Of a stretch of DNA of 64,000 nucleotides, positions 41,831 through 60,791 are shown in pieces. A model generated the notes under the pieces. It ran no database searches and was not told the origin of the DNA. It was given only the letters and a program-made list of their open reading frames with translations. The position numbers and the translations under genes were made by a program. The first letter of the stretch is position 1; the number at the start of each line of letters is the position of its first letter. The stretch comes from a virus. The DNA lies in the IMG/VR virus record IMGVR_UViG_3300021399_000152, positions 1 through 64,000 of that record. One strand, 5' to 3'.

Positions 41831-41843
41831 GACATCATCTCCT

Positions 41844-42935
41844 TTACATGAATGTGGGTGAGTACACAAACTTTAGCCGATCAATTGACATGGTCGTGAT
41901 CGGCGTGATCCAGATATCATCTGTATCAACAATGCGTATATTGTCGTAACTGGTGATAACTCCTTCGCCGATAAAACTGCGAAGAAATATATTATTGTTT
42001 TCCAGCCCCGTTATTTTATAAGGTTTATTCTGAACGACAGCATACTTTCCTATGACATCGTTTGACAAAGGTTTATCAATCTCTAAGCCGAGTTGATCAG
42101 TTTGCGCATCTATAATTAGCTGTCCATGCAAATTACTTGCTAGCGTTCTTGCAGGCGAAATCTGCACGAAGCCACGATCATGCCAAAGATATTTCATATC
42201 TTTATCAGTGCCATTCGTCAGATAGCAATAGCCGTTCAAGCTATCACACACATAGTACTTACCAGCCTGTGTCGTTTCTGCTGCGCTCATTGCCACGATC
42301 TTACAAGTCTGCCCAGTTGTCCTGTTCTCGATGAGCACACCTTGCCCAACATCACCAGCAATTTCCAAGGCAACATCTGCTGTTTCGTTACCGGGGTTCA
42401 TCACATGCAACTGTGTTTCTGCAGTGAGGTTCGTGTATTCGATAGGGAAGGCGCCAGTCATATTCACGAACATGTTTGAATTCGCTACGATATCATCGTA
42501 ATATGGATCATTTTGATCAAGATTTAAAAACTCACAGCGACCAAACGGATAGAAGCACTGCATACGGATCGTGATCATACCGTTAAACTTATTCGTAAGC
42601 TGCGTGTCATCGTAGCTCGTAATGGTCGCGTTATAATAAACCCAAGGCCGCCGCCCAAGCACGAGCTTGCCGGTCGCGCCGACCCTGTAAAAGCTCTCGA
42701 CTTGGGACAGGATACCTTCGGTAATTTTCGATTCTTCAAAAAACATACGAAGCACAATTTCTTTGGGCTTCTTTGTTGCACCATAGAAGTAACCACCATG
42801 GTGACCATCAAAAGTCTGCGAATGTATGTTCGAGGTTGTTGGCCTCCAGACATACATGTCACGAATGTCAGGAGCATACCTGAGGCCAAACTCACCACAG
42901 GAAACACCATTAAATGTGAAGGTCGATAATTCCAC
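41844..42935 (-). CDS. distal tail protein (Dit)
   Basis: N-terminal 'FTFNGVSCGEFGLRY' Dit signature; position between TMP and Tal. Confidence 0.7.
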   Translation of the reverse strand: MELSTFTFNGVSCGEFGLRYAPDIRDMYVWRPTTSNIHSQTFDGHHGGYFYGATKKPKEIVLRMFFEESKITEGILSQVESFYRVGATGKLVLGRRPWVYYNATITSYDDTQLTNKFNGMITIRMQCFYPFGRCEFLNLDQNDPYYDDIVANSNMFVNMTGAFPIEYTNLTAETQLHVMNPGNETADVALEIAGDVGQGVLIENRTTGQTCKIVAMSAAETTQAGKYYVCDSLNGYCYLTNGTDKDMKYLWHDRGFVQISPARTLASNLHGQLIIDAQTDQLGLEIDKPLSNDVIGKYAVVQNKPYKITGLENNNIFLRSFIGEGVITSYDNIRIVDTDDIWITPITTMSIDRLKFVYSPTFM

Positions 42936-42994: not shown

Positions 42995-45900
42995 TTAAAA
43001 ACTAAATTTACTTGTACTGAGTCCTTGCATACTGAGGTCCTTAACGAACTCGCGACCAATCCGAACAGCAAGCTCTTCGAAATCAGCCTCATTGTTGATC
43101 TGGTTCGTGTTGATGTTGATGTCGCCGACCGTAACACGGGCGCCACTTGCCAGAGAAGAGTCGTCATAAATATGACGCACAAAACTGCTGGTGTTAATCT
43201 GCTTGAAAGAGGCAACCATAGTACGCATATCCTGCATGAAGCCACTATCGAGAATGCCGCGCATGGTATTGCGGTCTTCATTATCAAGGAAGGCTTCTGG
43301 CTTGGCGGGCGTGCCGTGAACCATAGCAAGACCAGTGTACTTGACTTCGCCGCCTTCGGAGAAGGGCACTGCATTAAGTCGGTTATTGTTTGCATTTGTG
43401 CTCGTCTTGGTCGGCTTTGCTTGTTGAGCAGTTGGCACGACTCGTTTTACCGTGTAACCCTCATTATATGCTATAAGATTTAAATATTGTTGTGCTCTGG
43501 CTTGGCTGTTAAATGTCTTAACAAGTCTGCCTGTATCGCTATATACACCCCATGTAGATGTTGAATTATTGGTTGTAGTGCTTGGAGAATTTGGACTACC
43601 GGGTCCACCACCACTACCACCTGAACCACCACCGCCGCCGCTTTCGCCGCCGACGTAGTCTGCGAACTCTTCGTCATCATGATGATAAGTTGCCCAGTCT
43701 TCACGCGTTCTCAAATAATACAGATAGCTGCCACTATTAACAGCATCAAGCCATTGATAGAGCAACTCTTCTTTTTCGGTTTCTGAAGCGTTCTTGTATT
43801 GGTCGCTCTCCATCATGAATGCCTTGAAGATATCCTTCCTCGAGAGGATCTGATTAACCTGATCCCAATACGTATCAGTGATGCCAAGCATCTGCTTGTA
43901 CGTATCTTCCCAGCTCTGGACCATCTGGGTTTGAGCGTCTTCAAGACTGTGAGAGTATTCTTTTACGTTGTTCTTCAGCCACTTGAACATATCTTCCTGA
44001 TTCATCTGCATAACTTTGGCAACATCTGTTGAGAAGTTATTTGCATCTTCAAGAAGAAGCTCAAGGTCTTCGTCACCATACTGCTCGTATTTCTCAACAC
44101 CTTTGATCTGGTCGTCGAGAGATTCCTTCTGGGCGTTCGCTTCTTGCTCAGCTGTTTTCCATGCAAGCTCGTCCTCTGTTTCGGCAATCTTCTTACGAAG
44201 TTCTGCTGCATCCTTGGTACGAGTGGAGTCCATGCTGATCAGCGCGAGCTGTCTGCGATACTCGGCAAGCTCTTCATACTTCTTCGCTTCATCTTCTGCA
44301 TCCTTGCGCATCTGCAAGCGTTTGTCGATCAAGCTCTTTTCTTCTTCGAGAGCTTCGCGCTTCTTTTCGAGATCCTTTTTAATTAAATCCCACTCTTCTT
44401 GATGCCTTTGCCTGATAGCTTCAAGAATGGTATCCTGCATTTCAACGGAAGCAGAAAGCATTTCACGCTGTTTCTGGATACGGGCTTCGATCTCTTGGAC
44501 GACCAAGTCTTCAAGATCTGTACGAGCTTTACGAATTGCAGAGTTGTTCTGCTGAATCTTCAGGGTGTTAGCTGTGATCGTATTGTTTGTCTGGTCGAGC
44601 TCTTCCTCATACTTGAGAATTTGTTCATACAGTTTCTGCCAGTCATCAGAACCACGATCAACGGTCTTGAGCTGATTGCGAAGATCAACGATATTTTTGG
44701 AAAGCCGTGAAGCTTTATCTTTCTGTAAAGTGTTTTCGTATTCGATCATATTGTTCTCATTACTGAGCATACCAAGTTGATTATATTTCTGTTCTTGTAA
44801 TTGTGTCATCTTAATACGGTGATCAGCTATGGTGATACGGTTCTTCACATTCTGGAGAAGCTTATCTGTTGCAGACTTCTCTTTATTACCGCCACCGCCG
44901 CCTCCGCCTCCACCGCCGTGGTATGCGCCGGTATTATTCAGTGCGCCAGTAACTGTTGCACCTTTGAGAGCATTCAACACAGTTTCTACAGTGATCTCTT
45001 CACCGTTTTCATGAATTTTGAGAGCAAGTGTGCCGACCAATCCAGCATAGTTTGCCAGCTCTGCAAGACCAGCATCCTGCAAAGACTTAGCTACAGCTGC
45101 AACTTCACTTGCATCGATCTGACCATCAGCAAGTACTTTAAAGTTAATAAGCTGTGTGATATCTACACCATTATTTGCAGCTGATTCAAGACCCTGAATG
45201 AGACGTTGCTTAATTGTTTCGCCAACGCTATTGAGGTAACCCTCATTAGCCGCTGCTTCCATACTGTCAGCAAGCTTAGCCATTTCTTCTGCGCTCATTT
45301 TCTTGAGGTCTTGTTCATCAAGTTCTGTTGCACCAGCAATGACCTTGAGATCAGCAGATTTCAAACCTTTGCCAGCAACGCCCTTACCATTTTTGCCACG
45401 CATTTTATTTGCGGCTATTGCCATATCTCCGTATTTGTTCATTTGCTTGATCATGCTTGATGTAGTCTTCAGAGCAGAAGCTGCGTTCTTGTCTAAGCCT
45501 TCAAGGTTGTTTTTAACTTCATCGCTATAGTCGCCGAATTGTTTCATTGAATTAATGCCGCCATTACGAAGTGTGTTGAAAAGAGCATTGAATACAGTTT
45601 GGCTATCTGCACCTTCTGTATTCAGCAGTTTAAGAGCTTCAGCACCACCATCAAGACTTTGGATCCATTGCTGTAAACCAGTAGTGTCGCCAGCAAGATA
45701 GTTGTTGAATGCTGCGACATCGAACACACCAGCGTCAGCACCGCCAAGGAATGATAAAGCGCCATTATTCTGAGCCCAAGTATCGAGCTGTCCCATACGT
45801 GCAGAATACATTCCATCATAACCAAGAGCTGCATACGAAGAGGCTGCTCTTGCGCGAGCTTCGATCACATCATAATCAGCACCACTTGCAAACTTGAGCG

Positions 45901-48900
45901 AGCCATCCTCATTTGTGGCAAGCTCACGGCCTTCATGTTCGAACAGATCATAGAAGATTGCAGCGATAGCAGGATCAGAGAAGAAGTCTTTCACCGCTCC
46001 TTTGTCTTTCATCCATGCAAGGTCGGAAGATTCAAATGCAGTCTGGAATTCTTCAGCAGAGCTTGAACTGCGAAGCATAGCATAGACATCATCAATTCTT
46101 TTCTGCTTTTCTCTCGTGTCACCAAGATGGCTGGCTTCATCAACCCAGCCTGCAATATCAGCAAAAGAAAAGACGTTGTTTTGGTCGATCTTGGATTGCA
46201 AACCAGCGATCAAATCAATAAAGTCTCCGATCACTGTTCCAATTGCAGTTAATGCGTGGTCGAGAGCAGACTGTTTCGAGTTAATGTCGCTCGTTAATTG
46301 ACTTACAGTAGCACTGGTTATTTGCATAGAGTCGATCTGATCTGTAGTCCAGCCAATTGCTCCAGCTATATCCTTCATTTTCTTAGCATCCAGAGATTCG
46401 CCAGGTTTAGTCATCAGAGCTAATGCATCCAGATATTCATTGTATGTTTTAATCCTGCTCTCAACATCGCTGACGTATTTATTTCTTTGATCTTGTGTGC
46501 CATACAGTTCTGTTGCTCTGCTCATGGTTTCTTGGTCAAAATAATCTGCGTTGGCATTATACATATTAGTCAACAGATTACTTGCTCGTTGCTGTCTGAG
46601 TTGTCTAGCTTCCTCGGAGCTTAATGCCGTGCCTCTCTGAATCAATTGTTCAATACTAAGGCCATTGATATTAGAATATTGGCTTGCTAATGCCGCCTTG
46701 ACTTCTTGATCTTCTCTAGCATAACCACGCAAGATGGCAGTACGACCTATCATACTTGGATTAAGCAATGCATTATAATATTTCATCACATCAGGATTAT
46801 TGTAATCCTGTGATAATGAATTGAAGTAATTTATTCCGGCACTTTCCAAGAATAATTTGCCCATAGTCTGGCGCCAACCATTCTGAACAGCATTTTGATA
46901 TTCAGGGTTTGTTAACATGGTTGACATAAATTCACGCATCATGTCTGAAGACGAAGCACTTAATGCCTGGTTAATAGATGCCGCATCCATGTTGGGTTTG
47001 CTAGTCAGATATCTGTATGCCGCCAATGCCTGATCTTCATATTGATATGGGCTTACATATCCTTTGAAAGCTTCAGATGCTTGATTGGTCCGCGCTGTGC
47101 TTGGCATGAAATAATATTGCCCGTTTGTAGTGGCAAAGAAACCATCACGCGTAGAAAACATATCTTTGACAAATGGCGCATACTCTGGATACGCATTTTG
47201 GAATTCTGCAAGGCCAGAATTTAATGCGCCCCATTCTTTGTCGATGAATGACTGGTATGTTTTTAACTCATCGGCAGTCTTGCCTTTGGTATCAATCTTA
47301 AAGAAAGATGATACTAAGTCGCGATCAGCTTCAGACGTACCACCATTCATGAGTCTTGTGAATGCATTGATAGCTTCGCTTTGTTGCACAAAAGTATTTA
47401 ATGTTGTAGAGACGGCAGACGATGCGTCAGCACCGCCAGTACCAAGTTTGATATTCTCAAGCTGTTTGAAGTTTTCGGCTACCTCTTTCGAGATGATACC
47501 AAGATTTACGAGATCATCATAATGGTCAATCTGAATCTCAACATTGGCTTTCAGGCTCAGTTGGTCAAGCTCTTTCTGAATTTGAGCATAATCAACATCG
47601 GCTGCTAACACCAATGAACCATTTTCATCTCGTTCAAAATTACCGGTATCAGTATTGAACTGGAATAAACGATAAAGCACAGATGCAACATCTTTATTAC
47701 CAGCAAACTCTTTAAACTGGTCAGCATTTTTTACCCAATCAAGATTACGTAACTGTTCAATGAATGCCTGTCCATTCTGAGCTCTGTTGGCAGCACCAGC
47801 AAGATCAGCATATTGTTGTTGACGATATCTTTGAGCACCCTTGCCACTGCCGGTATTAACCCAATCATACAATTCTTCTAATGTCCACTGTTTCGATTCT
47901 GCTGTAAGATCTTTGGTGGCATTGCTCAATGAGGTGGAGAAACCATCCGCAGCGTCTCCAGCCAAAGCAACAGAAGAAGTAAAGGTGGAAATTGTGCTTT
48001 CAAGAGTTATCGAAGCTTTAGCAATGCTTTCATCAGATGTCGTCAAACCAGCAATAGCATCCTCGGTCATACCGCCAGTTCTTGCAACTTCCTGAATAGC
48101 AGAAAGTGATCTTGCATATTCAGGCAGCCTCTGTTGGAATGCAAGAGCAGCACGACTAGTTCTGTATTGTTCTGAAGTTTGATGAACTTGATTGAGATAT
48201 TGCAACTGCTCTTGTTCAGTGCCATACAAATTTTGCGCACCAGATAAAATAGAGTAATCGTATCCATAAGGATTTGCAGCATATGACTGCATCAGTTTAT
48301 TTTGAGAATATGCAGAACGAACTCTGTTTATATCCTGTTGTGTTAGCTTTTGTCCTTGCGACACTTTGGGCAATAATTCTTCTAACAGGCTTTGCCCAAT
48401 CCATTGCCCAAGAACATTTTTCAGCGGATTGTTGTTATCTAAGTTTTTCAACACAGACTGATCAGATTTAAGTAAGGCATCATAATATGATTTAACTGTT
48501 GCATTATTGTAATCTGTGTTAAGAGGATTAAAGGCATTATATCCATACGCGCCTTGAGAGAAAATATCTGCAACACTTTGCCAATCTCCATTGTTAATAA
48601 AGTCAAAGTACTGTGCATTTTTCGATAATTCATTCAAGAAATCCGAAGATGTTCTCTCTTGCAATTGAGCATGGAAATTGTCTGGTATTTTGTAAGTTTG
48701 ACTTTCTTGATCATAAAAACTGTTGAGCAAATCATATGCGTTCTTATAATCATTGACTGCATTGTATTTAACAACATTCGCATCGAGTTTCTTTTCGTAA
48801 TCATACATAGAACGATCAGCTGCCTGATATATGTATGACCCTGTTTTATCATTCCAGATTAATCCAGACTCCAAAAGCCGTGAATCAATATCTGCCCTTT

Positions 48901-51900
48901 GCTCATCAGAGACGTATGAACGAAGCATGTTAGCTTCACGCACAGCTGTATCCATATCAGATTTATCATTTAGCAACATTTGTTTGTATTTATAAGATCC
49001 AGCTTGCACATCTTCTACTTCACGCCCAAGCATTGCAGCTACAGTTTGGTAATCCTGACTCAAGGCGCCGTTATCATTTGCAATTCTCGAAAGAGCACTA
49101 TAATAGTCAGCTCTTCCAGTAATTGAATTGACTATCTTGTCAATAGACGTTTGTCTTTCTGTGCCAGATGTAGATGTCTGCAAAGTTGTATAGTTGCTAG
49201 CAAAGTCACTTGAGATAAGACCAAGATCACGCTGTGCGGTAATTTCCTTTTGCGCAATTTCATCTAACAACTGTTTTCTGATTAATTCATCTGTGCCTTG
49301 GCTGTCAACAAACTGCTGCAGATTGGGATATGTAGCTTTAACACGCGCAAGCAATCCTTCGTTGGTCTGAGCAAATGCTTGAGTTTTGGCATACGGATCC
49401 GCAGCATTAAGTATCTGTCTTGCCATATCATTGATTTGAGCATTTGTATAATAAGTATCGAATGATGCAAATGGGTTTTCTTTATTCATTGTGATGCCGC
49501 CATTGGTATAGCGTGCAAGCACATTACCATTTTCATCCATATCAAATCCGATACCGTACATGCTAAACAAGTTCCACATACTCTGAAGCATCGGGTTGTT
49601 GTTGACAATATCACTTAATGCTTTGCCTTTGTTTGACGGGAGTTTGGCATAGCTTGATAATGTCTTACTATAATTTTGGTCAATGCCAGACAGGAAAGAA
49701 CCGCTGTTTGCATAATAATTCTGCATGAATTGGGTATAGATTGCATCAAAATTATCCTCGAGCATTTGAGGTGTTGCTCCGGGAACATACTTTGCAATGA
49801 TTTCCCTTAACTTCTTATCACTACGCGCAGACTCTTTATCAACACTCATCACCTGATATTGCTCTGCTAATGCCGTTGCATACTTTGTAATGTCTTCCAT
49901 GTAAGAAGTAAACGAATTGGCACCAAGAGACTTTGATAACAAATGACGCCCAAGATCATCCTGATCGTATACACCAGTACCTTTGAGCAGATCTGCCATT
50001 ATTTCAGTGAGATCATTGTCAGCCTGCTGCAGCTTTTCAATATTATCTACTCCTCTGGTTGCCTCGGAAAATTTGTTGATGTCTTCGGCATTGCTTGCCC
50101 ATAAAGCAAATAGCTGTCTATATTCATCAACATAACCCTTTTCTTTGCTTGTTAATTTATTAGCGTCAACAAGATCACCGAGAGATTGACGAGCACGTAA
50201 ACCAGTTGAATTTGTTATAGCTGCATTAGCGATGTCATTAAAGTTCATTGCACGAAGAGCATTAAGCTGCTGCTTAACTTCTTCCGAATCTGCGGACTTG
50301 TAGAAGCTGTCAATGGCTTGCGTGATAGCTTCTTCTGTGAGCTCATCGAAACCAATCAAACCATTGTAACTATACCGGAAAGCATTCTTATCATTTGGCT
50401 TAAAAATATCATAGATAGTACGGTCGCCATTAATGAATGATTCCATATATTTTTTAATATTGGCAGAGCTTAAACCTTCATCGCTCATCTGTTTGAGTTC
50501 TTTGTCATAGTATTGCCCGATGTAGTCTTGTGCGAATCCTTTAATCATCTCATCGCTGGTAATACTCATCGTTTCAAAAACAGGGCGCAAGTTATCTGTA
50601 AATAAAGTTTCGATCTGGTCAGCTCTCAAACTTTCGATAGTTTGTTTGCTTTCTTCCAAAACATTATTTAAAACACTGCGCGGTTGTATCATTGCAGTTC
50701 TAAAACCGTTGACTATGCTGTAAATATCGTTAAGATCTGCTTCATCTCTATCGATAGGATAAAGAGCATATTCCTTGAGGATTGAAGCAAACTCTTTGTA
50801 CGATGTGATTTCTTTACCACCAACTTTAAGACCGGGTGTTTGTTTGATATATTTATCGAGCGCATCCGTAATATCATTGATATTTCCAACTTGTTCACCA
50901 TTTTCATTCCAAAAGTTGGTATCAATTGCATTACTCATACCAGATGCATTTGCGAACAATAATTCCGTTAGTCCACCTAATGTGCTAGTGCTGGAAAATA
51001 ATCTGCCTTGCAATACTTTGCTTAATTCACCATATGACCCATTGGCAAGTAGCTCTTTTTCACTATCAGTAAGAGATATACCTATGTCTTTGAAGTCTTG
51101 TTCTGTTAAAATATCTTTGTCGCTTCGATATAATGCTTCTAAATTATCATACAACTGTGGAGTTTTACCAACAAAGTTATTTAATCTTGCATACACGTAT
51201 CCATCACTAGTCAATTTCGTACCAGTATGTTCAGCAAGAAATGTTTGCTCTGTATCTTTGTATGTGTTAAGACTTTCAGTAATGCCACCCATAGCTTCTG
51301 CTAACAAGGTTGAAGCATCAGTTTTATTTTGCTGCTCGCTTGCTTCTTTTGCTCTCTTTGCAACTTCAGTGTAATATTCAAGAGAACCAGAAGCTTGGTT
51401 AACATTATCAGTAAGGCCAGAAAAATACACTGACAACGTTTGGACCGCAGTACCAAGAGCATCGGTAGCCTCTGTAGGAATGTTATCAAATGTGTCTTCA
51501 TACTTTGTCGTGATGTTATCAATATCATTGATCGCATCTTGAACCGCTTTTCTGCGTCTATCTTGTTTTTCTTTGAGTGCATTTGTATTTGTTCTTGACA
51601 GTTCACCATCTGTTTCCTTTTGTTCCGGTTTGCCAAAAAGCGCATTTCCGATTCCACCAGCTGTGCCAGCAACACCGGCAATTGCACCAATAGCAGCAAC
51701 AGTACTAATCAGACCAGCAGAAGCAGCAGCCCATTTAGTAATAGCCAAAGCATCAGGCATAGTTGCGATATCTTTAAGGAAACCAAAGACCGCTATCTTA
51801 ATTGACAATGCACCAAGAGCCGCGATTAATGCTGTGATCACAGGGATCGCCGCACTGCCAGCCTCACTCAGATTTGTGAAACCTTGGACCAAACCAGTGA

Positions 51901-54900
51901 CACCATTGAGCAAACCAGTGATCATATTATCCGAACCAAGGCTTTCAACGAAACCATCAAATGTAGACTTCAGGTTATCCATTGCAGCCTGAATTCCTTG
52001 GATTACAACTTCATACTTACTCTGAACTGTGTTATCAGAATTATCAGCAAGACCAAGATATTCATCAAGCAGCTTGCCGCCATCTTCGCCCATGCCAGCC
52101 ATAAGTGTATTGAACATGTTAGCCTGACGACCGCCAGCCATTGCATAAGTAATGTTGCCTTTCTGTAAGTCAGACAACCCTTCCCATACAGAAGCAAGTT
52201 CTCGAAGCACATCGAAAGAACTACGGAACACATCTTTGCTTGATCTTAATCTGATGCCAGCAGTTTTCAATGCGGTTTCAACATCATTGATACTTGTGGT
52301 TTCACCGGTTTCGTCCGTAATGAAACCTTCTTTTGTAACACGATTCATACGGCTGAACAATGTCTGGAAAAATGTACCAGCCTGTGCACCACCGAGCTGT
52401 GTCTTACTTGTTGCAATAGTCAGCATTGATGTCAATTCATTGTAGGAGACTCCGGCAGTCTTTGCAGAGGCCGCAGCTTTCTGCATACCTTTTTCAATTT
52501 CTTCTGCGGTCGTAGCTGCACTATCGCCAAGAGCAGTGAGTACATCCATAGCCTGATTAATATTGGACACGAGTCCAGTTTGAATAGCAGTTGTAAGACC
52601 TTTTGTTGCATCAGTGATTTTCGCACCGGTTACAGTACTAAACTTAACGATAGCATTTGTTCTTTCTTCTACCTCTTTATCTGAAAGACCCTGTCTGTAA
52701 AGAGCAGCCTTAGTTGAAGTAACATTGGAAACAGATGTTTTTAATTCTTTTGCTTGCTTGATAGAAGAAGCACGCACTTCACCCATCTCACCGGTAGACT
52801 TACCAGAAATTGCTTGAATAGTCAACATGTCAGCGTTGAACTGACGCACGAATGTAGAGGCTTCTTTAAAAGCAGTTTGCAATGCTCGCTTGCCTAACTG
52901 AAGAAGGAGATTTTCCGCAGCATTGCTGACATTCATTAACGTAGTACGAAGCAGACCACCAGTAGAACTGAATTCTTTCATGGCAGCATCTGCCTGAGTT
53001 AAGCTTGCATCGTAGTCGGCAAGAGCATTATTGGCAATACGGATGTTTTCATCAATCAAAGCAAGCTTATCTGTATCGGTTGGATCAGTGTGCTTCCTTT
53101 GATAATTTAACTGATTGATATGAGCATTTGTTCTGTCAATTGCAGTTTGCGCTGAATTGCGTTGGTGCATCCATGACAAATACTGCTGATCATTATACTG
53201 CCAACTACGGCCCACAAATGTCGGACCATACTGTAAGCGAGCCATGTTATACTGCCTCTTAGCAGCATCAAGCTGAGCCATGTTAATTTTATGCCCAATG
53301 TCACCATTAGATTTTGTTTCTAATAATTGAAGCTTTTGACGTTCCTGTTCATCCTTTATAATATCCTGCAAGATTTCACCGGATTGAACTTTGCCATTTG
53401 CATCAATATATTTTTGTAAAGCAGAAGGTATATGTTGTTTACCATCACTGCCTTTAAAAGCATCGTCTTGAAACAAAGATTTAAGCTGCGTTGCCAAAGA
53501 AGCACTTCTAAGTTCTGACATTTTCATGCTTGATGTGCCGACCCCAGTAAGAGCAGCGGTAATGTTGGCAACTTGTTCCATCTGTTTGTTGTGGAAAGCC
53601 TCAAGCTCAAGTTTTTCATTAGCATCTAAATCAATAGATTGTGAACGGGCAAGTTGTTGTTTAAGTCGTTTAACTTTCAAATATTGTGCATACTCATCTG
53701 CATAATTCTGTTTAAGAAATGCTTCACCGTTTGCCTGACCTAAATAACCCTCAATTAAACCAGTACGCAAATTAGCGCTATTTTCCAATATATCATCTTG
53801 AAGCATCTTTTCAACAGCTTGTTTTTGACTGCGTTTTATGTCAAATGAGCTTTTGATTTTGGATCCACTTGTCTGTGTCTGATATGCATCAATTGCTTTA
53901 TCAATGAGTTGACTACGATATTCTTGCAAATCAAAACTATCAAGATCACGCAGCAATGCATCATATAGATGTTGCTGATCCAGATTTAAATTTTCACCCT
54001 CGAATATTTTGGCAATGGTTGCTTTGCTTTGATCAATATCAAACTGCTTTTTAGCAACCGCAGCTTGTATGTCTGCACGAGTATCTGACGCACCAATAAT
54101 ATCATTAACTGATGCTCGCTGTGATGTTAATGCATCGCCAATATAACGTTGACGGAGCTTTTCCATGTTATCATCAGTTAGAAGAGCTTGAGCCTGCATA
54201 CTAAGTGCAAGAGCCTTGTCGTCGGAATACAGACCGCTTTTTCTGAATTCTTCGATATTACCAAGATGTCTTCCTACCATCAGCTTGTAATTATCAAGCT
54301 GCTGTTTAATGCTTGGCACCTTTTTATCTGGACCAACCTCACCGCTGATTTCTCTTGATAAAGTATCATATTCATCTTCGATGATTTCGTCAGCCTGATT
54401 GCTTAATGTTTCCTGAAATTTTTGCCGAGCTTCTTCCGCCTTCAAACCTAACTTCTGTGCAAGTCTCTGGTTTTGTTTATATCCTTTGACTCGTGCAGCA
54501 GTTTCTTGCAGTTGAGAATTGAAGTCGCTTATTTTTGCATTATATTCCTCTTCAGAAACTTCATTCTTTTTCTGCTCGTCTGTCATAGTGCCAGAAGCTT
54601 TTGCTTTAGCAATATCTTTTTGCTGTTTTATAAAAGCACTGCGTTCATCTTTTATTTTCTTACCAGTACCTTTACTTTCATCAATAAGTTTACTCAACTC
54701 ATTGTAATCATTATTCGCATTCTGTACTGCCTTCGCTAAATCATTCCATTGTTCTGTCAAACCTTTTGCTTCTTTAGAAGCGATCATTCCTTTATTCGTT
54801 CTTTCAATTTGATCAGCAAGGTCAGAATAGCTACGGATAGCGGCTTCTGGAACAGTCCTATAATAAAGATCTTTTATATCATTTGTTTCTCGCTGTAACC

Positions 54901-57900
54901 TTGCAGCTTCTGCGAAATTACCACGAGCTTCAAGAGTTGCAATTGTATCTTCGTTCCCTCGGATTGTTGCGTGATAGCTGTCCCAAATGTTACCTATTGT
55001 TTTTTCGTCCTCTGGAATTAATTTTCTTTGGATCGATTTCGACAGCTTTTGTGTTCTCTCCATCGCCTCTTTGTAATCTTCATGCGAAGTTAAAACACCG
55101 CCCAAAGCACCGGCATCAGAGATTCCTGTGCCACGCATTTGCTTGATTGCGCGTTCAGACAATTGCAATTCTTTCGCGAACTCATCGTCGATTCCGCCAC
55201 TAAACATTAATTTATTAGCAAGTAAACTAGCTCTTTGTATTGCATCAAGTCCAAGCCCGGAAGTTGAAAAATTCTGTATTGTTTGAATGACACGCGATGC
55301 TGCACGCACAGCATGCGCTATGGATTCTTGACTAGAGTCTATAGCATACATGTTTTGTCCAGCTGCAGCGTCAGCCAAAAGCACATTCAATGCACCAATA
55401 CCATTGTTTTTGAATTTATCAGGACCGCCTTGACGGAACTCGTCAGCATTTGCATACATCTGCAGCTGGAAGGCAACAGCTCGTTTTTTATCCATTGTGA
55501 AATCTTCAAGACCGCCATATGTTTTAATATCAATAATGTTGAGCTTATTATCTTTGTCCAGCATTCTGAACAGCAAGTCCTGATGACCATGCATATCAAT
55601 GGATTTTGACGAGTCACCAAGTTGCTCACCAAGTTTACTAATAGTCAGATCATCTTCGCTACCGATATATTCATTTGCTAACTCTGGGAGAATAGACAGA
55701 ATGCCCTTTTGATTTTGAGATGACATAAAAGCTTTGAATCTTCTGTATTTCTTTTGCAATCTGGATTCTGCTATATGACCACCATTGGGCTTAGAAGTAA
55801 TTTCATCAATCATTGCTTCAATACGTTCGTCATCCCAGTTAGCATCTTTGCCCAATGCCCGAAGCCTATCACTAAATGATTCAAATTTAATATTCTTTGA
55901 ACTATCTTCTGGATCTACTATTTCTTTACCATTCCAGATATCTTCAAGCAGTTGTCTCTTAACAGCTTCTGGCAAAGCTCGTGTTGCATTTGGATCATCT
56001 TTCAATTGCTTGCGCACAAGCTTTTCGCGAATATCAAAGTAATCCTGAATCATATCTTCTGCAGCATGACCAAACATAGTATGTGCATTTGTACCAGTGT
56101 CTCGCTTGGTGTCCATTTGTCCAAGCTGATTAACAACCCAGTCAACAGGGTCTTCTGCAAAATGGATCAAGCTTGTTACAGACCATCCAGTATTATCGAG
56201 TTTATCTTGTATAGCATCGTGTGGGAGATATTTAAGTTTACCAAGCGCAGAGGACGGATCAACACGTTCATACTGCCTTTTAGATGACAAAGCCATTTTG
56301 GCAATACTGTCGAAGTCAAGATGGCTTGTGCTATATCCACCGCCGAATCTTTTAAAAGCACGCATAGTACGTTTAATTGAATCGGAAGCATCATTGATGT
56401 GTTCATCTGTCAAGCCGTAATTAGGGTCAAGCAAGTTGCTAAGAACAGTTCCACCAAACTCGCCAATAATATATTCTGCTTCTTGATGGTTATGTCCATT
56501 TCTCATTTCAGCGTTAATTGCTTTCGTGCGCATATCAAGCAACGCGTCAGCATCATGTTGCGATGCAATAACATAGTCGCCGCGAAGTTCGCCAAGAAGC
56601 AAGCTTTCCATGCCAGTAATAAATTGTCTTGTTTCTTTTGTTAATGCCGATTCTGATGCCTCATTTAAATAACCTTTATCTTTAAGTCTTTGTAAATTGC
56701 CCAGAGTAGAGTTGGCAAAAGCAGTACTCCAACTTACACCATTATCCAGCTGCACACCGTTTTGTGCAGCGGTACTTCTTGCAAGTAATGAAGCTAAGAT
56801 GTTCCCAGACATATGTATCGATGGCAAATTCATTTTGAACAAATTTGTCTTTAAGAAACGACCATAGTCAATATTGTTTTTACTATCTCTGCTCTTCATT
56901 AATTGGTTGTTAAACTGGTCCCAAGACTTATAACCAAACAAAATATTTTTTGCTGTATCTGGTGTTTCAAAGAAATAACCAGTTTTTGCAGAAGTAGAGT
57001 TTGTATCGTATTGGTCAAAAGCCATGATAAGTTCTTTCGCAATATCTGGAGTGATATCCATCTGCATTGCGTTTCTGGAAATAGCATTAGGCCCGCCCAT
57101 TCGAATTGATTGCATCATAGAGGCTGTGACCCACCGTCCAACATCCAACGCATTACGCGGATCGAACTTTTTCTGGTCACCAAAAATGCTACGCTTTTGT
57201 TTCTCAAGAATACGGTCGCGCTCATCCGGGGCAAGCTGAGCTCTCGCAACAAGATCGTTATGATATGTAACAGTCTTATCCCAGATTTTATTCATCATGT
57301 CTTGCATGGTAGTGCCATCTTTGCTCATAAGATCAATGATATCTGACATATCACCGTCAAAGTCAGCACCTTGCATTAATCCGAGAAGAGGAGAGTCTTG
57401 TGCCAAATAGATAGCATTCGGGTCCATACCAAGCTGTTGGACGAGCTTCCTGAAATTAGTACTTTTAAGTGCCTTATCATTAGCTCTGTTATTTATTTTT
57501 TGTGCTGATTGGATCTGTGCCGGGAAACGGCTAATACCCAACAGTGTAGCCATACTCTTAGAGAACACAGCATCGTTCTCGCCTATACGTAATCTGGCAA
57601 TATCTGCCGAGCTTAATTCTTGCCCATTGGCATCCTTCGGCAACAGATCTTCTATAACTTGCCCAGTCTTTTTATCGATAAAACGCCTTGCTTTTCCGTT
57701 AGTAATCGGGCCAGCTTCCGGTACCCAGCCTCCATCCCACATATTCCGCGGAACTTGGTCGGCACCGATTTGCCCTCTTTTATACATTTCATTGATAGCA
57801 TCTGAGAATACATTGATTGCCCAAGGAGCCAGCATGCCACGATGCGCCTGTACTCCCTCAGGCATAGGAAGATCGCCTCGACTCATACGTTCAATCATAT

Positions 57901-60406
57901 GAGTTCTAAATGCTTCAATACGATTCTTGTAAGGTTTCTTATTTAATAGAGCGGCACCGCCTTCTGAAAGCAGGCTGGTTGAGAGGGCACTGTCATCAGC
58001 GAAAATATATTTCGCCGCACCTGTTGGCGTACCAACACTTCTGAATATATCCCAGAATGTTTTTTGAAACACATCGGCTTGGTTCGCATCAATATCAAGT
58101 GTCTGAGCAAGCTGTGCAGGAATCCATGTTAAATGTGTACGCCCAGCTTGATTTGCAGTTCTATTAACATAGATACTATTGTCGGCAATGTTCTGTGCAA
58201 TAATTTTTTGGATCTCATCATAAGAAGCATTTTTGCCGAACCTTAATCCAGCACCCTTTAAGTCTTCCATATTGATGACCATCTGGGTGTCCTTTGTAAT
58301 CTTTTGCAATGTGCCGCCATAGCCAGGAACTACGATTTCACCATTCTTGTTGCCGGTAAAAGCTTCAACAACATTACCCATATTGACAGAGTTCAGAACA
58401 CCTTTGTAGCCAAACATACGAGCCTGAAATGCGTTGCCACCAGTCAACCCGCTACTGATATAACTAGCACCGTTCAATCCTGGAACTTTTGTTTTATCGT
58501 TCGCACCAGTGTATGCTGCCATATCAACGATAACAATTTTGTCTTTGTCAGGCAAAGCATCTTTACCATACAGTTGTCGTATATCTACACCTTCTGTAGC
58601 GATCTTGGAACTGTACTCCATGAACTTGGCAAAGTCTTGGCTGTTATCGAAAACTCTTGGAGTAATGCCACCAGTAAAGAAATTTTTCAAACCTTGTTTA
58701 TTTTCAATGTTATCAACTATGTCAGCGCGAACCATTTCAATGCCAAGGGACTTCGGATTAATTCTGGTTGCTTTGAACTTTGTTTTTTGACCGCCAATTT
58801 TAACTGACGTTCCTTTTGTGTACAGTTCGCCAACTTGACGCATAAGATTATCGCGTACATCCTGCGGAGTAGATTCGTCGATCAAACGCGGATCCAAATC
58901 AATATAAAAGACATAATCAAGAGCAGAATTGTGAGGGAGTACTCGACCACCCTCTGCAGTTCTCATTATTTTGTCCAACCCCATACTGCCATTGACAACC
59001 ATCTTGTGTGCTCGATCAGTCTCACTATAAGGATCTCCGCTCTGCCAACTTCTGTGCTGTGCAATATCGTCTAATGAATAATGAGTAACCTGATAAGCAT
59101 TAGGAGTCGCATCAAAATGAATGTTGCCTAATTGCCTCGTGCTGTTATTAATTCTATTAAGATCCACCTTGGGATTCTTTGCTTGCGCTTTTGTGCGCAT
59201 CTGAGATACAACTTGTGTGTTTAAATCATTGATTTGTGATGAACCATACAGAAGGGGAGTAAGCCAATCAAAATGATCCGACAGGAATCTGGCAGCACTC
59301 ATAGAACCGTTCAGCAATTTATTGTTTTTATTCAAGATGCGTTCAAAGTCGTCAGGATTATTTACATCTTTGATACCATACATCGGCATGCCACGAGCGC
59401 CGTTTTCGATCATCTGATACAAATAACCGGCAGCAGCATTAACTTGCTGTCTTGTCACGTGCCTATTAACACTCAAAGTGCCTTTTGATCTTGATGCAAT
59501 GCCAGCAAGTTCTGCAGCCTGAGCCATATAAGTATTTTCTTGAATTACATCTCCAAGACTCTTTTTCTGTCTTCTGGTAAGAAAGTCATTGTTTGTAAGT
59601 AATGAAGCAAAGTCTGCATTGGACACTTGTGTAAGACCAGTGCGAGCTTTCTTGAAAGCTTTCGGAAGCATATCCTCATAACTCTCAAAAGAGCCAATAT
59701 GACTATGCTTCATACCTTTGAAATGTTGCATGTAGTCATATCGTTGCACAGCATCCAAAACATTCACAATGCTGTAATCGACAAGTGACTCCATAAAATT
59801 ATCTAAGTTTTGACCTTTGGGTATTTTGCGCTGTTTGCCTTTTGCTGTCTTTGTCTGAAAGAAAGCCAAGCTCGACATGCTTTCCAAAATACCTTGATAT
59901 TCTTCGGTTGCCATAACAGCTGAGCGTATATATTTATCAGGAGATAAAGAAGTAATTCGACTTGTGTTATCTCCGAACGTGTTGCCAACTGACCGAATAA
60001 GTCTGTTCAAAGCTGGAAGCTGCTTTTCAATATGATGGATGTCAGACTCACTAAAGTGGAACCCATTCAGTGTTTTAGAAAGAGCTTGCAGCTTAGACAA
60101 ATCGTGTGAAATAGCAGTCATTGTCTTAGCGCCAAATTCATATTCACCAGTACGAAGCTCAGATGTATATGAATTCATTTTAGTATCTGGATCTGTTAAT
60201 TTCTCTTTAGCGGAGTCCATCAAATCAACGGCATCCTGAACTTCTGTGCGTAAATGCCGTGTGTAATTATTAAAAATTGTTGGTCCTCTGCTCGCTGTTC
60301 TCTCTATATTTTCCAAAGACTGATTTAATTTTTCGCCAGCATCAGCTGCCGCAATAAGATCTTGATATCCATCAAGTTGTATTGTCATTGATAATACATC
60401 AGCCAC
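42995..60406 (-). CDS. giant tape measure protein (5,803 aa) with ~2,400-aa N-terminal polyvalent-like extension
   Basis: AGGAG RBS; uninterrupted ORF. TP901-type tape measure core at nt ~52330-52990 (...AIQTGLVSNINQAMDVLTALGDS...GVSYNELTSMLTIATSKTQLGGAQAGTFFQTLFSRM), Gly/Ala-rich hydrophobic segments, periodic aromatic helical repeats, typical C-terminus (...VTVGDININTNQ...). Position MTP-G/GT-TMP-Dit-Tal. Confidence 0.85.
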   Translation of the reverse strand: MADVLSMTIQLDGYQDLIAAADAGEKLNQSLENIERTASRGPTIFNNYTRHLRTEVQDAVDLMDSAKEKLTDPDTKMNSYTSELRTGEYEFGAKTMTAISHDLSKLQALSKTLNGFHFSESDIHHIEKQLPALNRLIRSVGNTFGDNTSRITSLSPDKYIRSAVMATEEYQGILESMSSLAFFQTKTAKGKQRKIPKGQNLDNFMESLVDYSIVNVLDAVQRYDYMQHFKGMKHSHIGSFESYEDMLPKAFKKARTGLTQVSNADFASLLTNNDFLTRRQKKSLGDVIQENTYMAQAAELAGIASRSKGTLSVNRHVTRQQVNAAAGYLYQMIENGARGMPMYGIKDVNNPDDFERILNKNNKLLNGSMSAARFLSDHFDWLTPLLYGSSQINDLNTQVVSQMRTKAQAKNPKVDLNRINNSTRQLGNIHFDATPNAYQVTHYSLDDIAQHRSWQSGDPYSETDRAHKMVVNGSMGLDKIMRTAEGGRVLPHNSALDYVFYIDLDPRLIDESTPQDVRDNLMRQVGELYTKGTSVKIGGQKTKFKATRINPKSLGIEMVRADIVDNIENKQGLKNFFTGGITPRVFDNSQDFAKFMEYSSKIATEGVDIRQLYGKDALPDKDKIVIVDMAAYTGANDKTKVPGLNGASYISSGLTGGNAFQARMFGYKGVLNSVNMGNVVEAFTGNKNGEIVVPGYGGTLQKITKDTQMVINMEDLKGAGLRFGKNASYDEIQKIIAQNIADNSIYVNRTANQAGRTHLTWIPAQLAQTLDIDANQADVFQKTFWDIFRSVGTPTGAAKYIFADDSALSTSLLSEGGAALLNKKPYKNRIEAFRTHMIERMSRGDLPMPEGVQAHRGMLAPWAINVFSDAINEMYKRGQIGADQVPRNMWDGGWVPEAGPITNGKARRFIDKKTGQVIEDLLPKDANGQELSSADIARLRIGENDAVFSKSMATLLGISRFPAQIQSAQKINNRANDKALKSTNFRKLVQQLGMDPNAIYLAQDSPLLGLMQGADFDGDMSDIIDLMSKDGTTMQDMMNKIWDKTVTYHNDLVARAQLAPDERDRILEKQKRSIFGDQKKFDPRNALDVGRWVTASMMQSIRMGGPNAISRNAMQMDITPDIAKELIMAFDQYDTNSTSAKTGYFFETPDTAKNILFGYKSWDQFNNQLMKSRDSKNNIDYGRFLKTNLFKMNLPSIHMSGNILASLLARSTAAQNGVQLDNGVSWSTAFANSTLGNLQRLKDKGYLNEASESALTKETRQFITGMESLLLGELRGDYVIASQHDADALLDMRTKAINAEMRNGHNHQEAEYIIGEFGGTVLSNLLDPNYGLTDEHINDASDSIKRTMRAFKRFGGGYSTSHLDFDSIAKMALSSKRQYERVDPSSALGKLKYLPHDAIQDKLDNTGWSVTSLIHFAEDPVDWVVNQLGQMDTKRDTGTNAHTMFGHAAEDMIQDYFDIREKLVRKQLKDDPNATRALPEAVKRQLLEDIWNGKEIVDPEDSSKNIKFESFSDRLRALGKDANWDDERIEAMIDEITSKPNGGHIAESRLQKKYRRFKAFMSSQNQKGILSILPELANEYIGSEDDLTISKLGEQLGDSSKSIDMHGHQDLLFRMLDKDNKLNIIDIKTYGGLEDFTMDKKRAVAFQLQMYANADEFRQGGPDKFKNNGIGALNVLLADAAAGQNMYAIDSSQESIAHAVRAASRVIQTIQNFSTSGLGLDAIQRASLLANKLMFSGGIDDEFAKELQLSERAIKQMRGTGISDAGALGGVLTSHEDYKEAMERTQKLSKSIQRKLIPEDEKTIGNIWDSYHATIRGNEDTIATLEARGNFAEAARLQRETNDIKDLYYRTVPEAAIRSYSDLADQIERTNKGMIASKEAKGLTEQWNDLAKAVQNANNDYNELSKLIDESKGTGKKIKDERSAFIKQQKDIAKAKASGTMTDEQKKNEVSEEEYNAKISDFNSQLQETAARVKGYKQNQRLAQKLGLKAEEARQKFQETLSNQADEIIEDEYDTLSREISGEVGPDKKVPSIKQQLDNYKLMVGRHLGNIEEFRKSGLYSDDKALALSMQAQALLTDDNMEKLRQRYIGDALTSQRASVNDIIGASDTRADIQAAVAKKQFDIDQSKATIAKIFEGENLNLDQQHLYDALLRDLDSFDLQEYRSQLIDKAIDAYQTQTSGSKIKSSFDIKRSQKQAVEKMLQDDILENSANLRTGLIEGYLGQANGEAFLKQNYADEYAQYLKVKRLKQQLARSQSIDLDANEKLELEAFHNKQMEQVANITAALTGVGTSSMKMSELRSASLATQLKSLFQDDAFKGSDGKQHIPSALQKYIDANGKVQSGEILQDIIKDEQERQKLQLLETKSNGDIGHKINMAQLDAAKRQYNMARLQYGPTFVGRSWQYNDQQYLSWMHQRNSAQTAIDRTNAHINQLNYQRKHTDPTDTDKLALIDENIRIANNALADYDASLTQADAAMKEFSSTGGLLRTTLMNVSNAAENLLLQLGKRALQTAFKEASTFVRQFNADMLTIQAISGKSTGEMGEVRASSIKQAKELKTSVSNVTSTKAALYRQGLSDKEVEERTNAIVKFSTVTGAKITDATKGLTTAIQTGLVSNINQAMDVLTALGDSAATTAEEIEKGMQKAAASAKTAGVSYNELTSMLTIATSKTQLGGAQAGTFFQTLFSRMNRVTKEGFITDETGETTSINDVETALKTAGIRLRSSKDVFRSSFDVLRELASVWEGLSDLQKGNITYAMAGGRQANMFNTLMAGMGEDGGKLLDEYLGLADNSDNTVQSKYEVVIQGIQAAMDNLKSTFDGFVESLGSDNMITGLLNGVTGLVQGFTNLSEAGSAAIPVITALIAALGALSIKIAVFGFLKDIATMPDALAITKWAAASAGLISTVAAIGAIAGVAGTAGGIGNALFGKPEQKETDGELSRTNTNALKEKQDRRRKAVQDAINDIDNITTKYEDTFDNIPTEATDALGTAVQTLSVYFSGLTDNVNQASGSLEYYTEVAKRAKEASEQQNKTDASTLLAEAMGGITESLNTYKDTEQTFLAEHTGTKLTSDGYVYARLNNFVGKTPQLYDNLEALYRSDKDILTEQDFKDIGISLTDSEKELLANGSYGELSKVLQGRLFSSTSTLGGLTELLFANASGMSNAIDTNFWNENGEQVGNINDITDALDKYIKQTPGLKVGGKEITSYKEFASILKEYALYPIDRDEADLNDIYSIVNGFRTAMIQPRSVLNNVLEESKQTIESLRADQIETLFTDNLRPVFETMSITSDEMIKGFAQDYIGQYYDKELKQMSDEGLSSANIKKYMESFINGDRTIYDIFKPNDKNAFRYSYNGLIGFDELTEEAITQAIDSFYKSADSEEVKQQLNALRAMNFNDIANAAITNSTGLRARQSLGDLVDANKLTSKEKGYVDEYRQLFALWASNAEDINKFSEATRGVDNIEKLQQADNDLTEIMADLLKGTGVYDQDDLGRHLLSKSLGANSFTSYMEDITKYATALAEQYQVMSVDKESARSDKKLREIIAKYVPGATPQMLEDNFDAIYTQFMQNYYANSGSFLSGIDQNYSKTLSSYAKLPSNKGKALSDIVNNNPMLQSMWNLFSMYGIGFDMDENGNVLARYTNGGITMNKENPFASFDTYYTNAQINDMARQILNAADPYAKTQAFAQTNEGLLARVKATYPNLQQFVDSQGTDELIRKQLLDEIAQKEITAQRDLGLISSDFASNYTTLQTSTSGTERQTSIDKIVNSITGRADYYSALSRIANDNGALSQDYQTVAAMLGREVEDVQAGSYKYKQMLLNDKSDMDTAVREANMLRSYVSDEQRADIDSRLLESGLIWNDKTGSYIYQAADRSMYDYEKKLDANVVKYNAVNDYKNAYDLLNSFYDQESQTYKIPDNFHAQLQERTSSDFLNELSKNAQYFDFINNGDWQSVADIFSQGAYGYNAFNPLNTDYNNATVKSYYDALLKSDQSVLKNLDNNNPLKNVLGQWIGQSLLEELLPKVSQGQKLTQQDINRVRSAYSQNKLMQSYAANPYGYDYSILSGAQNLYGTEQEQLQYLNQVHQTSEQYRTSRAALAFQQRLPEYARSLSAIQEVARTGGMTEDAIAGLTTSDESIAKASITLESTISTFTSSVALAGDAADGFSTSLSNATKDLTAESKQWTLEELYDWVNTGSGKGAQRYRQQQYADLAGAANRAQNGQAFIEQLRNLDWVKNADQFKEFAGNKDVASVLYRLFQFNTDTGNFERDENGSLVLAADVDYAQIQKELDQLSLKANVEIQIDHYDDLVNLGIISKEVAENFKQLENIKLGTGGADASSAVSTTLNTFVQQSEAINAFTRLMNGGTSEADRDLVSSFFKIDTKGKTADELKTYQSFIDKEWGALNSGLAEFQNAYPEYAPFVKDMFSTRDGFFATTNGQYYFMPSTARTNQASEAFKGYVSPYQYEDQALAAYRYLTSKPNMDAASINQALSASSSDMMREFMSTMLTNPEYQNAVQNGWRQTMGKLFLESAGINYFNSLSQDYNNPDVMKYYNALLNPSMIGRTAILRGYAREDQEVKAALASQYSNINGLSIEQLIQRGTALSSEEARQLRQQRASNLLTNMYNANADYFDQETMSRATELYGTQDQRNKYVSDVESRIKTYNEYLDALALMTKPGESLDAKKMKDIAGAIGWTTDQIDSMQITSATVSQLTSDINSKQSALDHALTAIGTVIGDFIDLIAGLQSKIDQNNVFSFADIAGWVDEASHLGDTREKQKRIDDVYAMLRSSSSAEEFQTAFESSDLAWMKDKGAVKDFFSDPAIAAIFYDLFEHEGRELATNEDGSLKFASGADYDVIEARARAASSYAALGYDGMYSARMGQLDTWAQNNGALSFLGGADAGVFDVAAFNNYLAGDTTGLQQWIQSLDGGAEALKLLNTEGADSQTVFNALFNTLRNGGINSMKQFGDYSDEVKNNLEGLDKNAASALKTTSSMIKQMNKYGDMAIAANKMRGKNGKGVAGKGLKSADLKVIAGATELDEQDLKKMSAEEMAKLADSMEAAANEGYLNSVGETIKQRLIQGLESAANNGVDITQLINFKVLADGQIDASEVAAVAKSLQDAGLAELANYAGLVGTLALKIHENGEEITVETVLNALKGATVTGALNNTGAYHGGGGGGGGGGNKEKSATDKLLQNVKNRITIADHRIKMTQLQEQKYNQLGMLSNENNMIEYENTLQKDKASRLSKNIVDLRNQLKTVDRGSDDWQKLYEQILKYEEELDQTNNTITANTLKIQQNNSAIRKARTDLEDLVVQEIEARIQKQREMLSASVEMQDTILEAIRQRHQEEWDLIKKDLEKKREALEEEKSLIDKRLQMRKDAEDEAKKYEELAEYRRQLALISMDSTRTKDAAELRKKIAETEDELAWKTAEQEANAQKESLDDQIKGVEKYEQYGDEDLELLLEDANNFSTDVAKVMQMNQEDMFKWLKNNVKEYSHSLEDAQTQMVQSWEDTYKQMLGITDTYWDQVNQILSRKDIFKAFMMESDQYKNASETEKEELLYQWLDAVNSGSYLYYLRTREDWATYHHDDEEFADYVGGESGGGGGSGGSGGGPGSPNSPSTTTNNSTSTWGVYSDTGRLVKTFNSQARAQQYLNLIAYNEGYTVKRVVPTAQQAKPTKTSTNANNNRLNAVPFSEGGEVKYTGLAMVHGTPAKPEAFLDNEDRNTMRGILDSGFMQDMRTMVASFKQINTSSFVRHIYDDSSLASGARVTVGDININTNQINNEADFEELAVRIGREFVKDLSMQGLSTSKFSF

Positions 60407-60705: not shown

Positions 60706-60716
60706 AAATAATTAAA

Positions 60717-60791
60717 TGCCCAAGACGAGACTTGAACTCGTAGTTGTACGGATTTTAAGTCCGCTGTGTCTGCCTATTCCACCACTCGGGC
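60717..60791 (-). tRNA. tRNA with anticodon UAA (Leu) but class-I-sized variable region
   Basis: On - strand: GCCCGAG-TG-GTGG-AATAGGCA-GACAC-A-GCGGA-CTTAAAA-TCCGT-acaact-ACGAG-TTCAAGT-CTCGT-CTTGGGC-A; D-arm nearly identical to the tRNA-like family. Confidence 0.65.

Follow-up and report, generated by a model that had tools for sequence, protein, structure and literature searches.

To our knowledge, RNA polymerases (RNAPs) carried on a tape measure protein (TMP) have been known only from a small group of Thermus (hot-spring) phages. In Thermus phage P23-45, the 5,002-aa TMP gp96 has an N-terminal two-barrel RNAP, is present at full length in virions, and is active in vitro (PMC10770324; Chaban et al., Nat Commun 2024). 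Five minutes after infection, gp96 occupies the pre-early genes, and Chaban et al. propose that its RNAP transcribes DNA passing through the TMP pore (PMC10770324). The tail of P23-45 measures ~800 nm for these 5,002 aa. A second relevant enzyme is YonO of the Bacillus prophage SPbeta, a free-standing, nonvirion RNAP of 839 aa that transcribes late genes (Forrest et al., Nat Commun 2017, PMC5467207). Here, we describe a 64,000-nt stretch of viral DNA (positions 1 to 64,000 of IMG/VR record IMGVR_UViG_3300021399_000152; hereafter, the window) in which a single giant open reading frame (ORF) encodes a TMP fused at its N terminus to a YonO-type RNAP and a DNA-end nuclease. We estimate a probability of about 80% that this protein serves both as the tail-length ruler and as an injected virion polymerase for the first genes.

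We conclude that the region from aa ∼435 to 1400 of the giant protein is a YonO-type single-subunit two-barrel RNAP with its active-site residues intact. The sequence GADFDGDMS (aa 1013 to 1021) resembles the NADFDGD loop of beta′, and the motif R960-F-P962 is separated from D1015 by 52 residues. This spacing fits the pattern [RK]xPx{20,100}DxDxD, corresponding to the filter by which Chaban et al. recognized two-barrel RNAPs ([RK]xP 20 to 100 residues before DxDxD) (PMC10770324, Supplementary Data 4). An AlphaFold2 (AF2) model of aa 560 to 1330 reached a pLDDT of 82.7 and a pTM of 0.80. The F660-Q661-x-R663...K668 motif falls within a six-strand beta module of the model and aligns with SFMVRLPWVKG of YonO, and the connector between the barrels (aa 892 to 933) is modeled with low confidence, recalling the disordered connector of gp96. 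By structure comparison, the fold is similar to those of solved two-barrel RNAPs, with match scores of 12.8 for P74-26 gp62 (a gp64-type nonvirion RNAP), 10.3 for maize RDR2, 10.2 and 10.0 for two crystal forms of the P23-45 gp96 tape-measure RNAP, 9.9 for gp66 of phi14:2 (a crAss-like phage), 9.6 for QDE-1, and 7.6 for AR9 beta′.

Among characterized proteins, only YonO resembles the polymerase domain significantly in sequence, and both are single-chain two-barrel enzymes. When a 24-sequence family profile was compared with SPbeta YonO using hhalign, aa 644 to 895 aligned with YonO residues 248 to 488 (Prob, 91.7; P = 7.9e-7), while controls with YonO shuffled (eight sequences) or reversed yielded P values of 0.33 to 0.85. 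With relaxed thresholds, a single colinear path extended over almost all of YonO, pairing LMQGADFDGD with LLQ-FDNDGD; this alignment starts only at about aa 435 of the giant protein. The protein differs from YonO in carrying DFDGD instead of DNDGD, ∼430 extra N-terminal residues, the fusion to a TMP, and a nuclease. Sequence searches with aa 1 to 1750 were fruitless against Pfam, PHROGs, NCBIfam, GenBank phages (tblastn), PDB sequences, and a word-indexed collection of 5.8 billion proteins; the last also returned nothing for the family alignment, and aa 1 to 559 by themselves matched no entry of Pfam, PHROG, or NCBIfam. The relatives were recovered only by an exhaustive HMMER (phmmer) search with aa 451 to 1400.

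That search yielded 45 cluster representatives, of which 24 are giants of 3,695 to 6,003 aa whose N-terminal match falls at the same place. The domain order is uniform among all 24: the DxDGD motif at aa 890 to 1030, a TP901 core at aa 1630 to 2870, and a tape of 1,550 to 4,276 aa. In 23 of these giants, a hydrophobic segment comes directly after the core, and equally many have the conserved C-terminal module. Family members are 23 to 46% identical to the polymerase domain of the window, and the catalytic motifs are intact over the 45 representatives, with D-x-D-G-D occurring exactly once (aa 890 to 1030) in every sequence that covers the site. The family alignment has ∼40 near-invariant columns, including FQxR...K, R960-x-P962, N973, and D1015/D1017/G1018/D1019. 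Ten representatives were traced to their sources, all of which are contigs of 44 to 124 kb in metagenome assemblies (ENA, Logan, and JGI). A tblastn search of 50,697 GenBank phage records with four family members, including that of the window, gave no match, and pattern scans of IMG/VR and GTDB genomes found no close relative, the family alignment being too diverse for pattern design.

This conservation bears on whether the polymerase domain might have lost catalysis and persist as a structural relic, contributing only length or an assembly role. The sequence is far from that of every characterized RNAP, as a relic could be; however, dead domains lose such catalytic residues, whereas here the Asp triad, the RxP motif, and the second-barrel R/K pair are invariant at only 23 to 46% identity, and the motifs of the adjoining nuclease behave likewise. 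We therefore regard a dead domain as highly improbable.

The nuclease domain is of the RecB/Cas4/Dna2-type PD-(D/E)XK group. PF12705 (PDDEXK_1) matches aa 1408 to 1709 with 30.3 bits (cutoff, 22), and the motifs G1607..D1610, D1626-x-K1628, and Q1647-xxx-Y1651 are invariant in all 12 nuclease-bearing family members. The domain adjoins the polymerase in twelve members, sitting further downstream in one of the twelve. The profile built from these twelve sequences matches RecB-like domains (mycobacterial AdnAB, E = 0.004; Cas4 SSO0001, E = 0.1). Match scores from the structure comparison were 13.4 for AdnAB and for Dna2, 12.2 for Cas4-family ACE1, 11.8 for MGME1, 11.3 for Exo5, 10.5 for RecE, 10.3 for AddB, 10.1 to 10.3 for Cas4, and 8.0 for RecB. 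These matches suggest that the nuclease belongs to the end-processing group that acts on DNA ends. Because the giant protein contains no cysteine, it lacks the Fe-S cluster known from Cas4, AddB, and Dna2, and the domain thus belongs with the cluster-free members of the RecB/Cas4 type. Compared with the RecB-family nucleases (AdnAB, AddAB, RecB, Dna2, Cas4, MGME1, and Exo5), it has neither a helicase partner domain nor Fe-S cysteines and is embedded in a virion structural protein. An earlier reading of the window from its letters alone (the original prediction) had described the N-terminal ∼2,400 aa as unlike a tape measure and as containing RNAP-like and nuclease-like motifs. That description held and can now be sharpened: the first motif belongs to a two-barrel RNAP domain (AF2 model, structure matches, and YonO profile match) and the second to a RecB/Cas4-type PD-(D/E)XK domain (PF12705 and profile and structure matches). 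The model and the domain matches also show that the N-terminal half is not simply more helical tape repeat.

The remainder of the protein is a genuine TMP. TIGR01760 (tape_meas_TP901) matches aa 2522 to 2867 (E = 1.4e-26; 93.4 bits; cutoff, 28.8), PF10145 matches aa ∼2550 to 2760 (E = 2.1e-23; 83.7 bits; cutoff, 33.2), and 11 PHROG tape measure families match aa ∼2420 to 3740, beginning at about aa 2417. The K/E/Q/A-rich linker that leads from the enzymatic module to the core has no Pfam or NCBIfam match; the PHROG matches extend N-terminally into the final ∼80 aa of the linker. Beyond the PHROG and core matches, the tape has no family match. The TP901-type core and the Gly/Ala-rich hydrophobic segments (aa 2846 to 2918) of the original prediction were thus recovered, but two of its other observations were not: periodic aromatics could not be detected (the best z was about 3 among 40 lags, with nothing at lag 11), and in place of internal duplications of ∼150 aa we found one old duplication of ∼360 aa (aa 3922 to 4277, nt 47576 to 48643, versus aa 4492 to 4849, nt 45860 to 46933; 21 to 40% identity).

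The absence of cysteine from all 5,803 aa contrasts with contents of 0.25 to 1.7% in the other virion proteins of the window, and the whole family has 0 to 3 Cys per 4,000 to 6,000 aa, the N-terminal module included. Such near-absence fits a protein that travels unfolded or works outside the cytoplasm. It also has a bearing on a rival explanation, in which the RNAP and nuclease are made in a TMP precursor but cleaved off or translated separately and act within the cell that makes them, perhaps by transcribing late genes as YonO does, with the fusion serving coexpression. The linker of ∼800 K/E/Q-rich residues between the N-terminal module and the core, and the poly-Gly and low-complexity hinges of the protein, could accommodate such a separation, and YonO, the sole sequence-detectable relative, indeed transcribes late genes outside the virion. 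Yet Cys is almost lacking along the whole length, which fits one polypeptide under a common constraint, and the fusion is kept in 24 of 24 giants despite <30% identity. Furthermore, a late-gene polymerase encoded inside the very late operon that it must transcribe would be circular, and P23-45 virions hold the RNAP domain within full-length gp96. We consider separate action in the producing cell unlikely and favor a single polypeptide carried in the virion.

Like gp96 (homologues in P74-26, G20c, and TSP4; PDB 8H2M and 8H2N), the giant protein joins an RNAP to a tape core within a single ORF that occupies the tape measure position. The two nevertheless share no detectable sequence homology (hhalign P = 0.29), and the structural match to gp96 is no better than that to other two-barrel RNAPs. 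The polymerase described here is related to YonO, whereas gp96 groups with gp64 of its own phage; a RecB/Cas4-type nuclease is added after the polymerase, and a metallopeptidase domain was not found with Pfam. The settings differ as well: a mesophilic rumen environment and an SPbeta-like virion module here versus a Thermus host for gp96. Judged from these comparisons, the RNAP-TMP fusion likely arose independently of gp96, and the giant protein would be functionally gp96-like while standing outside the gp96 sequence family. The virion RNAPs of phi14:2, a crAss-like phage (gp66; PDB 6VR4), and of N4 are packaged in podovirus capsids, outside the tape measure, and the N4 enzyme is T7-like, with another fold.

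The original prediction had also linked the ORF to the polyvalent proteins (Iyer, Burroughs, Anand, de Souza, and Aravind 2017, PMC5512222), with which it shares the concept of a large, multidomain, enzyme-bearing protein delivered with DNA. What stands of this is the enzymatic N-terminal module on a genuine TMP. Membership in that family does not: when the entire protein was scanned with Pfam, PDDEXK_1 and PhageMin_Tail were the only matches and no signature domain was among them, and the polyvalent-protein paper holds no tape measure case (PMC5512222). The precedent is instead gp96.

The ORF starts with GTG, eight bases after AAAGGAG, and has no internal stop. A public protein collection contains an entry of 5,803 aa that equals the translation except for M instead of V at position 1. 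Gene calling gave the identical protein on at least four or five contigs (50 to 200 kb) from several runs, whose sample names (SHIW14, SRR8735xx, and GCA_001684375) point to sheep-rumen data sets, and the C-terminal 3,312 aa are identical in three independently assembled loci from different runs (L007 to L009). The recurrence of the same protein on several contigs, and of its C-terminal part in three independent loci, makes it very unlikely that the ORF is an assembly chimera or conceals a frameshift. The single uninterrupted 17.4-kb ORF noted originally is therefore real, with neither a stop nor a frameshift splitting it in the several assemblies checked. Its domains and neighbors are listed in Table 1.

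Table 1. Features of the giant ORF, its neighbors, and the early-region tRNA genes in the 64,000-nt window
Feature	Residues (aa)	Window position (nt)	Strand	Remarks
Giant ORF, TMP with predicted N-terminal RNAP-nuclease module	1-5803	42995..60406	-	5,803 aa + stop
N-terminal extension	1-559	58730..60406	-	family-conserved, strongest at aa ∼300-350
Predicted YonO-like single-subunit two-barrel (double-psi beta-barrel [DPBB]) RNA polymerase domain	560-1330	56417..58729	-	
Beta-rich module assigned DPBB-B	647-750	58157..58468	-	invariant F660-Q661-x-R663...K668, K717 (basic residues)
Beta-rich module assigned DPBB-A	945-1027	57326..57574	-	invariant R960-x-P962, N973, catalytic loop
DFDGD metal-binding aspartate triad	1015-1019	57350..57364	-	
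Predicted RecB/Cas4/Dna2-type PD-(D/E)XK nuclease domain	1396-1720	55247..56221	-	
K/E/Q/A-rich linker, enzymatic module to tape core	1721-2500	52907..55246	-	composition
TP901-family tape measure core (PhageMin_Tail)	2522-2867	51806..52843	-	
Two Gly/Ala-rich hydrophobic segments (transmembrane hairpin)	2846-2918	51653..51871	-	
Long tape region	2919-5160	44927..51652	-	
C-terminal module: poly-Gly hinge, E/K-rich helical stretch, terminal domain	5161-5803	42998..44926	-	phmmer, 23/24 giants
Tail tube protein, SPbeta-like		62317..63111	-	Pfam YomU_Tube; upstream of giant ORF
Predicted tail assembly chaperones G (158 aa, 61691-62167) and GT (259 aa)		61389..62167	-	between tube gene and giant ORF
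tRNA-Leu(UAA)		60716..60792	-	directly upstream of giant ORF, same strand
Distal tail protein Dit		41844..42935	-	phrog_33, E = 4.8e-12; downstream of giant ORF
Tal-like giant tail protein		36107..41869	-	1,907-1,920 aa; downstream of giant ORF
Early-region tRNA genes		17190-17247, 18653-18735, 20101-20174	+	Ser-CGA, Gln-UUG by ARAGORN; one more by Rfam only

The surroundings of the ORF agree with the canonical tape measure position claimed for it, with the tube gene, the G/GT pair, the giant ORF, Dit, and the Tal-like protein following one another. Genes further upstream of the tube gene match Pfam YomX_C and YonB; together with the YomU_Tube match, they define an SPbeta-type virion module, which SPbeta and this phage share (Pfam YonB, YomX, and YomU). 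A slippery sequence, A_AAA_AAC (61718 to 61724, minus strand), lies in frame in the 158-aa ORF, nine codons before its stop, and a −1 shift there stays open through the ORF at 61389 to 61661, giving the 259-aa product. The 158-aa ORF and its −1 fusion have the classical G/GT arrangement, a textbook signal from which we take them to be the tail chaperones. Three small ORFs and the tRNA-Leu(UAA) gene separate the chaperones from the giant ORF. TTA makes up 20% of the Leu codons in the giant ORF (about 100 codons) versus 8% in the other late genes, and the third-position GC content (GC3) is 0.35 versus 0.43. Further tail proteins lie beyond the Tal-like protein. One ORF on the same strand (27814 to 32085; 1,423 aa) matches phrog_25468, a PHROG with no assigned function, in eight separate stretches (E = 3e-68) and is a highly repetitive distal tail or fiber protein. 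Overall, this rumen phage, about 118 kb in size, is a siphovirus of the SPbeta-like type. Its tape core is ∼25% identical to the cores of Bacillus, Lactococcus (949 group), and other Bacillota phages, and this resemblance, along with the SPbeta-type virion genes, suggests a Bacillota host.

There is evidence that the giant ORF is exchanged between closely related phages. A cattle-rumen contig (STEW19-1_SAMEA5383964 scaffold_368; L006) is 97.6 to 98.1% identical in DNA to this phage over 13.5 kb upstream of the ORF, covering head and tube genes. In the comparison of L006 with L005 and the window, this identity ends completely 12 nt inside the giant ORF (60395 to 60406). The L006 allele encodes 5,238 aa with the same architecture, but BLASTP detects no similarity between its first 2,250 aa and the protein of the window, although these residues match the family hidden Markov model (HMM) (E = 1.7e-31) and carry FQGR...K, RNP...x...DFDGD, and the nuclease motifs D...IDHK...QATYY. 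Near-identical phages thus harbor RNAP-nuclease-TMP alleles that have diverged deeply, the breakpoint lying at the start codon. This is the pattern of a cassette swap.

A wholly diverged allele beginning at the start codon of a phage that is 98% identical over the 13.5 kb upstream is also typical of arms-race selection. The N-terminal module could accordingly be viewed as an injected polyvalent-type effector, whose nuclease attacks the DNA of hosts, plasmids, or competitors or counters RecBCD/AddAB or CRISPR, and whose polymerase makes noncoding or primer RNA. Membership of the nuclease in the end-processing RecB/Cas4/Dna2 group would suit such a role, as would the noncoding RNA made by two-barrel relatives such as QDE-1. 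However, the Pfam scans gave no effector domain typical of polyvalent proteins, whose paper (PMC5512222) covers no TMP; half of the family keeps the polymerase without the nuclease; and the sole tested precedent, gp96, transcribes pre-early mRNAs. An effector function of this kind seems to us decidedly improbable, and we retain the interpretation of the module as a virion polymerase for the first genes.

If P23-45 gp96 is taken as the model, the protein would be incorporated into the tail at full length and determine how long the tail is. The original estimate of tail length (0.15 nm per residue) is reasonable and would give ∼500 nm for the tape portion and ∼870 nm for the whole chain. At infection, the protein would be expelled first and help to form a channel through the envelope. 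We infer that its N-terminal third is an enzymatic module that leaves the virion with the DNA or just ahead of it. Adjoining the leading DNA end, this module would work as a virion RNAP and transcribe the first-entering genes without the host polymerase. The role of the nuclease is more speculative: being of the end-processing kind, it may resect the end of the entering genome and so provide a single-stranded template for the polymerase. We prefer this template-preparation hypothesis because the relatives of the nuclease act on DNA ends and because gp66 and QDE-1 favor single-stranded DNA, which they transcribe far better than duplex DNA. Host-DNA degradation and counterdefense are alternative roles for the nuclease.

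Several observations weigh against this interpretation. The hhalign comparisons of the family profile with gp96 (see above) and gp64 were insignificant, and the profile had no significant match among PDB sequences. The nuclease is dispensable to the design: it is absent after the polymerase in the other twelve giants (P0015, P0018, P0019, P0020, P0022, P0023, P0025, P0027, P0028, P0031, P0032, and P0035), where coiled-coil-like sequence is found instead, and is thus an optional addition in one subclade. An RNAP-nuclease module of ∼130 kDa cannot be housed in a 4-nm tail lumen while folded, a problem shared by gp96. Nor is a role in early transcription guaranteed, YonO being a nonvirion late-gene polymerase, and a direct-repeat search of the early region found nothing convincing and no candidate promoter motif. 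Finally, a check for a second RNAP covered ∼74 kb of the ∼118-kb genome: the window together with L002 (about 70 kb) contains no other ORF of ≥250 codons with [RK]xP...DxD[GA]D, and the called genes in a further 3.5 kb of L005 are all ≤552 aa.

The fusion and its exchange also allow a broader and more tentative proposal. The RNAP-TMP fusion may have arisen at least twice, and in the rumen and gut, it may circulate as an exchangeable "ejection-transcription cassette" in which the nuclease resects the leading end, the YonO-like polymerase starts on the single strand, and allele swaps between 98%-identical phages replace polymerase specificity and tail length in one recombination. We regard this full scheme as possible but doubtful.

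Other parts of the window contain features separate from the late genes. On the plus strand between 6244 and 14248, there are about seven copies of an element of 118 to 145 nt (one apparently ∼230 nt), with units at about 6259 to 6393, 6395 to 6537, 10891 to 11120, up to 11458, 11461 to 11578, 12351 to 12469, and 14108 to 14248. The 5′ end of the element is tRNA-like (GCGGTGGCGGAATAGGTAGACGC, like the D-arm of a class II tRNA), and its 3′ hairpin, GTCAGG-TGCAAAT-CCTGAC, resembles a T-arm with TGC replacing TTC; an acceptor-like stem closes the element, and the 70 to 90 nt in its middle are variable. Neither ARAGORN nor Rfam (E up to 1) called these elements, and their folding z-scores were insignificant. 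The stretch is otherwise poor in long ORFs. Reassignment of a stop codon as an explanation for the short ORFs at 5 to 14 kb was rejected, as read-through of any single stop gives overlapping, inconsistent frames. At 21830 to 21925, three tandem 32-nt repeats (CAAAAACTCGTATGAAAAAGTGTGCATTATC-like) mark the site where the plus-strand block of small genes and the late block on the minus strand converge and the sign of the GC skew flips. These repeats may serve in termination, in regulation, or in an origin-related role.

The RNAP-TMP design could have passed for a thermophile oddity, but it now also appears in a large family of phages of ∼100 to 125 kb from the rumen and other metagenomes. The fusion described here is the second of its kind, probably independent and drawn from a different polymerase lineage (YonO-type). 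For the DNA-end nuclease beside a virion polymerase, we know of nothing similar that has been reported. What is new is thus a probable second fusion, an added end-processing nuclease, a large uncharacterized family, and evidence of cassette exchange. Several questions become testable with this family: how a large enzyme passes through a siphovirus tail, whether DNA entry is coupled to transcription, and whether a two-barrel polymerase starts on resected single-stranded DNA ends. The swap of alleles at the start codon between near-identical phages is, in addition, a natural experiment in the coevolution of polymerase and promoters.

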